Shown in pieces: positions 29,651 to 32,600 of a stretch of 64,000 nucleotides of DNA (the stretch's first letter is position 1; every line of letters starts with the position of its first letter). The stretch lies in contig JAHPZH010000001.1 in assembly GCA_019058315.1 (NCBI GenBank), positions 1,009,432-1,073,431 of the forward strand, written 5' to 3'. The stretch comes from Candidatus Helarchaeota archaeon. Lineage in GTDB: Archaea; Asgardarchaeota; Lokiarchaeia; Helarchaeales; RDOG01. Position numbers and translations under genes: made by a program. The notes beneath the pieces are model-generated. The model was given only the letters and a program-made list of their open reading frames with translations, searched no databases and was not told the DNA's origin.

Positions 29651-32600
29651 TCAAACCAAGTTTGAACAGTATAATTATAATTAGGAAGAGTGGCATTACT
29701 ATCATCTATACCCCAATTACCAGCAGTATCATTGGCAAAAACTCTGTAAATTACTGTAGTGTTATAGAGTTGGGGAGGGATTAATGAAATCCAGACGGAT
29801 TGATTTCCAAAGTAATCTAACATTAATACATTATTCCATGTAAGATTACCTAGGATTCTATATTGTAAAATGACCGTATCAATACCACTTGCTTCTTCAG
29901 GTTCTATAGCCCAGGATCCTACATATACAGTGGTATTATAATAAACAGGAATGGGTCCATGACCAGTACCAGGCTGCCATGGAGGTTCATTATCAGTAAT
30001 TGTATAATAATATTGAGAAGAAATAGTTGATTGCCCATTACCGTCTGTAATATTAAAATAAAAGGTTAAATTAAACCCATATGGAGGTGGTTCCCAAAAT
30101 TGCGCGAACCATAACCCAGAAGTAGAATTATAAGGTAAATTATCAACACCACTCTCAGATACACCGGCATAGGACACGTTCCACCACACTTGACACCAAT
30201 AGATAGAACTGTAAGGGGGTCCAAATAATGTATCAGTAGCATTGATTGTAACATTCATAATTTCATTATATTGCCATTGTCCTGGAGGATCGGGAGGATT
30301 TATTGTTATATTATTAAATATAGGAGGATTGAAATCAGTATCTGTAAAATTATAAAACATTCCGGTATTATTATCAACCCCCCAATTCCCTGCTTTATCT
30401 TGGACAAGAAAATAATAGGAATAGAACTGACCTCCAGCTAGAGGGGTAGAATAAGTCCAAAGATCTGGAGTTAATTGTGCCATTGTATAATTGAAATATG
30501 ATCCACCACCAATAGATATAGAAATTATGGAGACATTAACTCCCGAAGCACCGATCGGTTCTGTAGCATTCACAATAAACGTTGTTGAGGCTGGATTAGC
30601 AGGCATTGTTTGATAATAGAGTTCTAATTCAGGAGGATCATAATCAACTACAGTATAATTAACTGGTCCGATGGTTACATTATTATAATTTCCATCACCT
30701 ACTTCAATCATAGCATCTATAGTTGAATTATATGGAAATTGAGGGCTGGTTGTTACCCAATGAGAACCATTATATTCGAGATAACCCTCAAAAGGAAGTG
30801 TTTTATTCATAAATCCATAGATTTTAACATATAAGATATTACTGAATAATGGAGCACCTAAATCATCTTGGGCATCAATAGCTACTGTTATATTTTGATT
30901 ATATTGTAAAAATGGAGGAAGAGGATCAACAATTACATTATTTATAATTGGAATCCAAACATCTCCCACTGTATATTTATAAAACAAACCATAATGGTCA
31001 TCAATACTTGGATTATCATTTTGATCATATGCAACTATATAGTAGGTAAAATTTGTAGAAGGATTCGCAGGAGGTATCCATCCTAAAGTATCCACTCGGT
31101 AATGATTACCACTTATAAAAGTCATAGGAATTGGGAAAAAACCAGATTTATTAAAACTAATCCAACACTCTACATTTCTAACACCAGATGCTTGCCAAGG
31201 TTCGGAAACAAAAGCGCTAATTCTTAAATTTTCCTGAAGAGGACCACCAGAATTATAACTAGAATGATTTACAAAATCAATATCAGGTCCATTGAAATCA
31301 TCATAATAGTATATATATGGACCATCAATCATCCATTCGTTTATATTATTAGTAGCGTTGAGATAATACCAAGCTGTTGTGCCTGATCGACCCCATTCTT
31401 GAAGATCGTATCTCCAAATTGCAGGTTCCCAAGGATTTTCTTGATACATAGGGTATGTGGCTAAAAATCCAGTAATATTAGAATACATAGTTACGTTAGT
31501 AATAGTCCAGCCCAAATCATCCGTTACATTTACCAAAAAATTGATCTGTTGATCATAATTATATGTGAGATCTGGTGGAGATGGATCACGCCTATGAAAA
31601 TTAAATACAGGCATAAAGGATTCAACTGGATTTAATATTCTTTGGTGAATTTCTGCTTCATTATTTTGATAATATTGAAAAATTTGATTTATAATTAAGT
31701 CATTATTAAATTCATCTAGCACGTTATCTGCAACAAGTTTTGCAGTATCTACTGAAGCAACCATATAATCTATAATTCCTTCATAACCACTAATTATTAA
31801 TTCCATTTCTGAATCTAACCCCGTACCAGAATAACAACTTAAGAAGTAGTGATTTTCAATGGTAGACCCCAAAACTGCACTTTGGACTTCATTCCAAGGA
31901 ATTTCTTGAGTCCCAATAATTAGATTTTCTTCAGTCCCATGTAGAGCATAAATGACAGCGAGGGCATTATTATCATTTAAATTTGTAATTACATCATTAA
32001 GGGAAGATACAGGAACTAAATCAATTAAATAATTTGAAGATTCGTCATAAAGTAGTTCTGAAATCAGATTTGCTGCCTTAAGCGAAATTTCATCCAAAGG
32101 ATCATAGAGAAGCTTAATTTTAGGTGTTTCAGAAATATCCACATATGCCTCGCCATAATTAGATAAGAATCCTTTATTATCAGCAGCATCAACACCACAA
32201 ACGAGATAGTAATAAGATCCATCAGAACTAACAGTATCAATATATGAATTCCCAACTATTTCAGATGCAATTAGAGAGTATTTTGAAGGAGAAAAGCTGG
32301 CATAGGTTCCACGATAGATTTCATAAGACACTAAGTCGCTATCGGATGGAGTTGTCCAACTCAAAATAACCTTCCCTTCACCCGCTAATGGTGCATCAAC
32401 AGAAAGTTCAGGAGCTTCGGGACCAACTAAGTCACAAATACCTGTCACAACTTTGGAAGGATTACTTTTTCTTCCAAGAGCATCAATTGCTACAACTTGA
32501 AAAGTAAATTCTTTCATATGATCATAATATTGAACTTCATAAGAAGTTTCAGTGGTTGAACCTATTTTATAAGTATAATAGGTTAAAGGAGAAGTAGAGA

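Follow-up and report, generated by a model that had tools for sequence, protein, structure and literature searches.

We have identified a candidate cysteine peptidase head on a giant, predicted surface protein of an Asgard archaeon, and provide evidence that it represents a new family of clan-CD-like domains. The protein is encoded in a stretch of 64,000 nucleotides from Candidatus Helarchaeota archaeon (assembly GCA_019058315.1, contig JAHPZH010000001.1, positions 1,009,432 to 1,073,431 of the forward strand), hereafter the window. Its open reading frame, completed from the whole genome, amounts to 13,736 amino acids counted from a TTG at window position 33123. Near its N terminus lies an alpha/beta domain that probably contains a genuine clan-CD-type active site. 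We base this assessment on the conservation of His395 and Cys430, the loss of both together in one homologue, the order of His before Cys, their spacing of 35 residues, the Gly that follows the His, the Ser at Cys+2, the placement of the pair after adjacent strands, and the best structural and profile matches. A preliminary description of the window had proposed a caspase/CHAT (clan CD) domain with a His-Cys dyad, and this identity is supported by CHAT as the best fold match and by the conservation of both residues. Every curated threshold test failed, however, and thus we place the family outside every named one. We tentatively suggest that the domain is a surface-displayed, trans-acting cysteine peptidase.

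Conserved residues point to a probable clan CD active site

Three short motifs that had been noted earlier are present in the domain, numbered here from the TTG: VIYALHG (residues 390–396), YFLSCYS (426–432) and IISGYEGIID (443–452). The H393 and C428 of the preliminary description were counted from an ATG at 33117 and correspond to our His395 and Cys430; likewise, its interval of 31620–32115 corresponds to residues 337–501, and the domain as modelled is wider (332–504).

A first alignment of 68 homologous domains was extended by 17 from 20 further loci to a total of 85. Across the 68 domains the His, the Cys, the Ser at Cys+2 and Asp452 are invariant, the Gly after the His is present in 99% and Trp410 in 97%, and acidic residues are common after strand 1 (Y-D-x-x-D). 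Conservation of the dyad among homologues, which the earlier description had named as a check on its proposal, extends to the larger set, where His and Cys are each kept in 84/85 domains, Ser432 in 85/85 and Asp452 in 82/85. Because His, Cys and Ser432 are kept at these frequencies, the alignment indicates that the motifs are not a product of chance. Additionally, Asp452 may line the substrate pocket or be a third catalytic residue.

The single exception lacks both members of the dyad, with His replaced by Lys and Cys by Gly in the same protein (L109). A catalytic pair that decays together should leave just this pattern, and the protein is probably a pseudo-enzyme. It is a long member of the family (L109:5370-10007, minus strand, genome G011) and retains the Ser and the Asp.

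Predicted fold

The domain was modelled with AlphaFold2 from a 39-sequence alignment at a mean predicted local distance difference test score (pLDDT) of 91.6 and a predicted template modelling score of 0.87; a model from the single sequence (pLDDT 51) was too poor for use. Strands lie at domain residues 11–16, 42–47, 63–69, 100–103 and 119–121 with helices in between, a hairpin (76–85) and a helix separate strands 3 and 4, and a helical cap spans residues 129–173. The structural matches suggest a three-layer alpha/beta/alpha core with parallel strand order 2-1-3-4-5. In the model the His-Gly lies past strand 3 and the Cys past strand 4, which is the order required for clan CD, and this topology of adjacent strands would bring His395 and Cys430 near each other. 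Thus, the alpha/beta character claimed in the preliminary description holds in the model; the all-beta domains that it placed on either side have been viewed only through one fn3 match and by eye.

Fold searches lead to clan CD peptidases, and agree with the caspase/CHAT fold first proposed. Foldseek against the PDB ranked the SAVED-CHAT protease 8TL0 first (E 1.6e-5), with further matches to Csx29, procaspase-8, caspases-3, -6 and -7 and CED-3 interleaved with PurE. A CHAT protease was also the best match in an exhaustive VIA-align search, and legumain, caspases and Csx29 appear in the structural match lists as well; the matches to CHAT, legumain, caspases and Csx29 span 140–170 residues. What sets the CHAT match apart is mainly its longer coverage, at 168 residues compared with 120–143 for generic folds. 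Fold alone does not decide the identity of the domain, because a flavodoxin-like fold has its strands in the order of the first five of the caspase fold, and a sixth, antiparallel strand is not clearly present in the model. By protein-language-model features, CHAT clusters were the nearest named ones in the ESM Atlas (score 0.91), which we treat as a lead only.

Profile comparisons

We compared the family by hhalign with alignments of Asgard CHAT, C14, C13 and PurE domains gathered from genome searches. With 68 sequences the family matched C14 at P 3e-4 (probability 39%, 139 columns) and CHAT at P 1.8e-3 (probability 15%, 153 columns), compared with P about 0.2 for reversed C14 or CHAT controls, P about 1e-6 for CHAT against C14 as a positive control, and P 0.026 for PurE as a decoy of the same fold. 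With 85 sequences a short-match, C13-like set gave P 0.005. The statistical signal in these profiles is weak, and the weight is carried instead by the register, in which the catalytic motifs are aligned in both the C14 and the CHAT comparisons: His395-Gly falls on SGHG of C14 or AGH of CHAT, Cys430 is paired with the invariant Cys, and Ser432 with the Ser in CxSG or CES.

Sub-threshold Pfam matches in three members of the family cover exactly the His-to-Cys segment, and clan CD is the only protease clan among them. These are Peptidase_C13 in P0023 (E 0.096), and Peptidase_C25 in P0027 (E 0.12) and in the 390-residue member at L101 (E 0.0089). The best Pfam match of any member, to Peptidase_C25, reached 15.7 bits against a gathering cut-off of 23, and the window domain had no match to the Pfam clan-CD families PF12770, PF00656, PF01650 and PF01364 even at E 10.

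Peptidase or other alpha/beta module

By DSSP, the model has five main strands and a hairpin, plus isolated bridge residues at 128 and 178; a sixth antiparallel strand is not clear, and the flavodoxin-like PurE scored almost equal to CHAT in a structural search. Several results weigh against a peptidase. With the 85-sequence profile the P of PurE, 0.005, was similar to the 0.0019 of CHAT. The long-match C13 set gave P 0.27 with the same profile, hhalign probabilities were low throughout, and only C14 stood clearly above the decoy. No curated family was matched: neither Pfam nor NCBIfam returned anything for the domain, whether it was scanned by itself or within the first 1000 residues, and the PDB gave noise or nothing when queried with the one sequence or with the profile of the family. 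Additionally, a metal site or other chemistry would also be compatible with an invariant Ser and Asp next to the dyad.

On a rival reading, the domain would be a flavodoxin-like alpha/beta module that uses these four residues to bind a metal or cofactor, or as the site of another hydrolase or redox reaction, or it would be purely a binding head. We consider such a module unlikely, since the hallmarks of clan CD recur in independent comparisons (His then Cys at a spacing of 35 residues, the Gly after the His, the Ser at Cys+2, and the position after strands 3 and 4), the CHAT match is longer than those to generic folds, and one paralogue has lost the dyad as a pair.

Three further identities were rejected. 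An adhesin head of the von Willebrand factor A (vWA) type with a MIDAS site should have DxSxS after strand 1, where the family has YDxxD, and there was no vWA among the top 50 structural matches. A thioester domain (TED) adhesin head would have an invariant Gln partner, which is missing here, and differs in fold. Resemblance to PurE or to periplasmic binding proteins is one of fold class only, with profile scores below that of C14 and functional residues that do not correspond.

Distribution of the family

Searching 1.84 billion representative proteins in full with HMMER recovered only 38 relatives of the domain (best E 5e-16). In almost all of these a hydrophobic N-terminal leader lies directly ahead of the domain; the rest of the protein may be unrecognisable or contain TSP3 repeats, Ig-like domains or CarboxypepD_reg domains. 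In the closest relatives, which are from Helarchaeota, FN3 is likewise followed by the domain. All named source clusters are labelled 'hypothetical' or 'exported protein of unknown function', and all named sources are Asgard archaea: Helarchaeota, Hodarchaeales, Thorarchaeota, Promethearchaeota and the cultured Lokiarchaeum ossiferum (UYP46823.1). Thus, the family appears to be confined to Asgard archaea among named matches.

Of 301 genomes of the Asgard phylum searched with a profile (A1) that also took in some leader and downstream columns, 114 had matches, often several of them. No paralogue was found in the host genome (5.79 Mb, 94% complete), where the domain is present as a single copy. 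Full-text literature searches found no paper describing the domain family; giant genes in Asgard genomes were already known (PMC8813620).

Predicted display of the head on a giant stalk

The giant protein is, by its predicted topology, a type-I membrane protein, exported by an N-terminal leader and anchored by a single C-terminal helix. The ATG at 33117 is the likely start, and the leader that follows has a basic n-region, a hydrophobic core of about 14 residues and a TSAS c-region. Among the three FN3-like modules upstream of the domain, the middle one is matched by Pfam fn3 (E 1.2e-8, residues 153–227), and the other two carry the same W...Y.IYR...YYY pattern, recognised by eye. About 660 residues without a Pfam match separate the domain from the stalk, in which we detected 97 copies of a unit of 113–117 amino acids between residues 1169 and 13,371, organised as a super-repeat of 2,097 amino acids (18 units). 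The reading frame runs on out of the window and ends 8,088 nucleotides before its first position (L072:1845-9932, minus strand), and this last part encodes two FN3-like modules, one transmembrane helix and a short basic tail. Cys is scarce in the protein, at 29 among 13,736 residues. As the signal peptide is N-terminal and the transmembrane helix C-terminal, the domain would be at the distal tip of the stalk, a topology that fits the earlier suggestion of a protease at the end of a long stalk. Positions of these features are collected in Table 1.

Table 1. Positions of the giant gene, its domains and candidate functional residues in the window, and of small-form loci in other genomes (locus coordinates)
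Feature	Position	Strand	Basis or remark
Giant gene, part in the window	1..33123	-	Residues 1–11,041 of the open reading frame; frame unbroken
Probable Sec signal peptide	33028..33117	-	From the ATG at 33117; read from the translation by eye
Three FN3-like modules, residues about 40–330	32134..33006	-	Pfam fn3 and pattern by eye
Clan-CD-like alpha/beta domain, residues 332–504	31612..32130	-	AlphaFold2 model, fold searches, homologues, hhalign
His395 (domain His71), then Gly396	31939..31941	-	Putative general base; two residues past strand 3
Cys430 (domain Cys106)	31834..31836	-	Putative nucleophile; three residues past strand 4
Ser432 (Cys+2)	31828..31830	-	Invariant; aligns with Cys+2 Ser of CHAT and C14 consensus
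Asp452 (domain Asp128)	31768..31770	-	Conserved, with a putative role; start of helix after strand 5
Junction motif R-x-x-x-P-x-E-(P)-L, here RILNPVESF, at domain end	31615..31641	-	Alignment column counts
Stalk	1..29619, running on past the window	-	Repeat detection
Small-form locus, other Asgard genome	L099:9978-11914		
Small-form locus, other Asgard genome	L107:9986-12000		
Small-form locus, other Asgard genome	L112:7871-9932		
Small-form locus, other Asgard genome	L100:9757-11663		
Small-form locus, other Asgard genome	L105:9059-10648		
Small-form locus, other Asgard genome	L106:9438-11153		

The stalk is rich in Thr (15%) and Asp (10%), and a Pfam scan over 10,000 of its residues found nothing meaningful. 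The two FN3-like modules directly before the C-terminal helix resemble those at the N terminus.

If the domain is a trans-acting peptidase, Cys430 would be the nucleophile that attacks a peptide bond and His395 the general base, and acidic residues after strands 1 and 5 (Asp341, Asp344 and Asp452) would shape the P1 pocket. The enzyme would act on external proteins or on a neighbouring cell's envelope, since the domain, preceded by three FN3 modules, would lie at the end of the stalk of about 97 repeats that points away from the membrane. We favour display of this kind because the head follows an export signal and precedes very different stalks and anchors (TSP3, Ig-like, giant repeats, transmembrane helices), and because in the giant protein it lies farthest from the membrane anchor. 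A conserved head before diverse tails is the usual layout of displayed enzymes. Display is also favoured by reports of genes for putative extracellular peptidases of clan CD (C11, C13, C25) in other archaeal genomes from sediments (PMC6461988).

The genes around the giant gene include other candidates for surface proteins. The next gene is on the opposite strand and encodes a LarA-like protein. Farther on, a gene for a MoxR-type AAA+ protein (AAA_3 and AAA_lid_2 matches) is followed by three genes without Pfam matches and by one for an AMP-binding (adenylating) enzyme (38805–47042, plus strand). A 1,427-residue protein with matches to bacterial Ig-like (Big_13) domains (50233–54516, plus strand) is adjoined by a 740-residue protein with an HVO_0163-type N-terminal helix-turn-helix (54525–56747, minus strand). 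Together with the giant gene, the Big_13 protein and this neighbour suggest a region rich in surface proteins.

Small membrane-tethered paralogues and possible processing in cis

The 20 loci that we fetched show that the family consists of long secreted forms and small forms of 255–402 amino acids. The small forms have a leader, a His/Cys head and then two to four hydrophobic (transmembrane) helices; their heads are similar to one another, and most of their tails are unrelated. They are nearly always followed within 0–100 nucleotides, in the same direction, by a gene for a small protein with two to six transmembrane helices and no Pfam match. Tail and partner gene did not clearly co-vary in this small sample, and two of the loci, L099 and L107, share a partner family and not a tail. 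Long forms had no conserved partner gene in the neighbour analysis across the 20 loci. A partner of 282–287 amino acids with six transmembrane helices is common to three small-form loci.

The preliminary description had also raised the possibility that the giant protein processes or releases itself. On this account the head would act in cis and cut its own chain at the junction motif, freeing the FN3-protease head from the stalk or, in the small members, the head from its membrane tail. Polymorphic toxins use caspase-like releasing peptidases in a similar way, and MARTX and large clostridial toxins their cysteine protease domain (CPD). The conserved motif R..xPxE(P)L lies exactly at the border of the conserved head and the variable remainder, and in long forms it closes the domain ahead of that remainder. 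It is also confidently modelled against the domain (pLDDT 96 over model residues 171–180), and the bridge residues at 178 and 128 may set the motif beside Asp452. The small forms, with conserved heads, mostly unrelated hydrophobic tails and small membrane-protein genes that follow, likewise speak for release. However, the small forms lack the junction motif, as their hidden Markov model matches stop near position 133–169, and the releasing peptidase of known polymorphic toxins and MARTX adjoins a C-terminal cargo, whereas here it is N-terminal. Self-release would also shed only the head, because about 13,000 residues of stalk and the anchor follow the domain. Weighing these points, we find self-release improbable.

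Possible ligation instead of hydrolysis

A transpeptidase or ligase would resolve the acyl-enzyme on an amine, and so couple the tip of the fibre, or other surface proteins, to a target. Clan CD includes enzymes of this type, such as PorU of the type IX secretion system, GPI8 of the glycosylphosphatidylinositol (GPI) transamidase and the plant legumain-type ligases. We found no specific similarity of the domain to GPI8 or PorU, and no substrate resembling a sorting signal was identified. Furthermore, Asgard genomes, including that of the host, have separate proteins above the C13 cut-off, one set of which is unlike the family. Thus, we regard ligation as very unlikely.

The host protein in question, of about 500 amino acids, is encoded outside the window and passes the cut-off of Peptidase_C13, the legumain/GPI8 family (G000:C11:560849-561469, minus strand). 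Peptidase_C13 proteins of about 500 amino acids also occur in many other genomes of the class to which the host belongs, and theirs is the profile that is unlike the domain at P 0.27.

Implications

To our knowledge, almost no complex surface protein of Asgard archaea has a known function, and the family described here offers one of them a testable, putative enzymatic head with an essentially invariant His-Cys-Ser-Asp set and as yet without a name in databases. It is open to experiment because one member is from the cultured Lokiarchaeum ossiferum. Taken with the predicted fold and topology, the conserved residues suggest that a protease-like enzyme is probably presented by the cell at a long distance from its surface. 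Cultured Asgard archaea have no ordered S-layer, and contact with syntrophic partners is a role proposed for their many complex surface proteins (PMC9834061).

An active domain would add a new extracellular family to clan CD and would place proteolysis or ligation by Asgard cells hundreds of nanometres away from the membrane. A more speculative extension, which we rate as quite improbable, is that the head has no digestive role and that, as a self-releasing or target-ligating clan-CD enzyme, it lets Asgard cells cut loose, or covalently fasten, a fibre of about 0.4 micrometres on partner cells, and that the small membrane-tethered paralogues and their partner membrane proteins form a related, Asgard-specific system for surface processing or cell-cell conflict. 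Were release or fastening to be true, the closest relatives of eukaryotes among archaea would have a new mode of cell-cell contact that is driven by an enzyme.

Comparison with known systems

CHAT proteases (PF12770), represented by the SAVED-CHAT protease 8TL0 and Csx29/TPR-CHAT (8EEY, 7Y9X), are the best structural match to the domain. His395 aligns with the invariant GH of IIHFAGHA, Cys430 and Ser432 align with LSACES, and the hairpin plus helix between them also aligns. However, CHAT domains are about 290 amino acids long compared with about 175 here, and the window domain has no PF12770 match. Characterised CHAT proteases are cytoplasmic and act in CRISPR and CBASS signalling, whereas this domain is predicted to be exported and extracellular. 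In the host genome there was no PF12770 match at E 1e-10 or better.

The C14 caspases (PF00656), including orthocaspases and metacaspases, gave the strongest profile signal, with the HG on SGHG and the C-x-S on DxCxSGG. In contrast to these, the domain lacks p10-like C-terminal strands and a clear sixth strand, has its own near-invariant Trp410 and Asp452 and a helical C-terminal cap, and resembles C14 at a level below curated thresholds. Gingipains (C25) and legumain (C13) are secreted clan CD peptidases; members of the family match them at E-values of 0.0089 to 0.12, below the gathering scores, and the giant protein has neither the Ig-like or propeptide domain of gingipains nor the LSAM domain of legumain. 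The family is distinguished by its size of about 175 residues with five core strands, by predicted export, by its own Trp and Asp, and by its apparent confinement to Asgard archaea among named matches.

The likeness to the releasing peptidases of polymorphic toxins lies in the small Asgard paralogues, with their conserved head, exchangeable hydrophobic tail and a small membrane-protein gene close behind. The window gene departs from this cassette layout, as its head is N-terminal and it has neither a C-terminal toxin-like cargo nor an adjacent partner gene.

Stalked surface proteases are known from bacteria and include the lactococcal cell-envelope proteinases, streptococcal C5a peptidase and the SPATE autotransporters, which are serine proteases on stalks of one to two thousand residues. 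The giant protein shares with them the order of its parts, with a signal peptide, an N-terminal protease head accompanied by FN3-type modules, a long spacer and a C-terminal anchor, and we consider this a functional analogy. It differs from them in its putative Cys-His head, its archaeal host and a stalk of about 13,000 residues.

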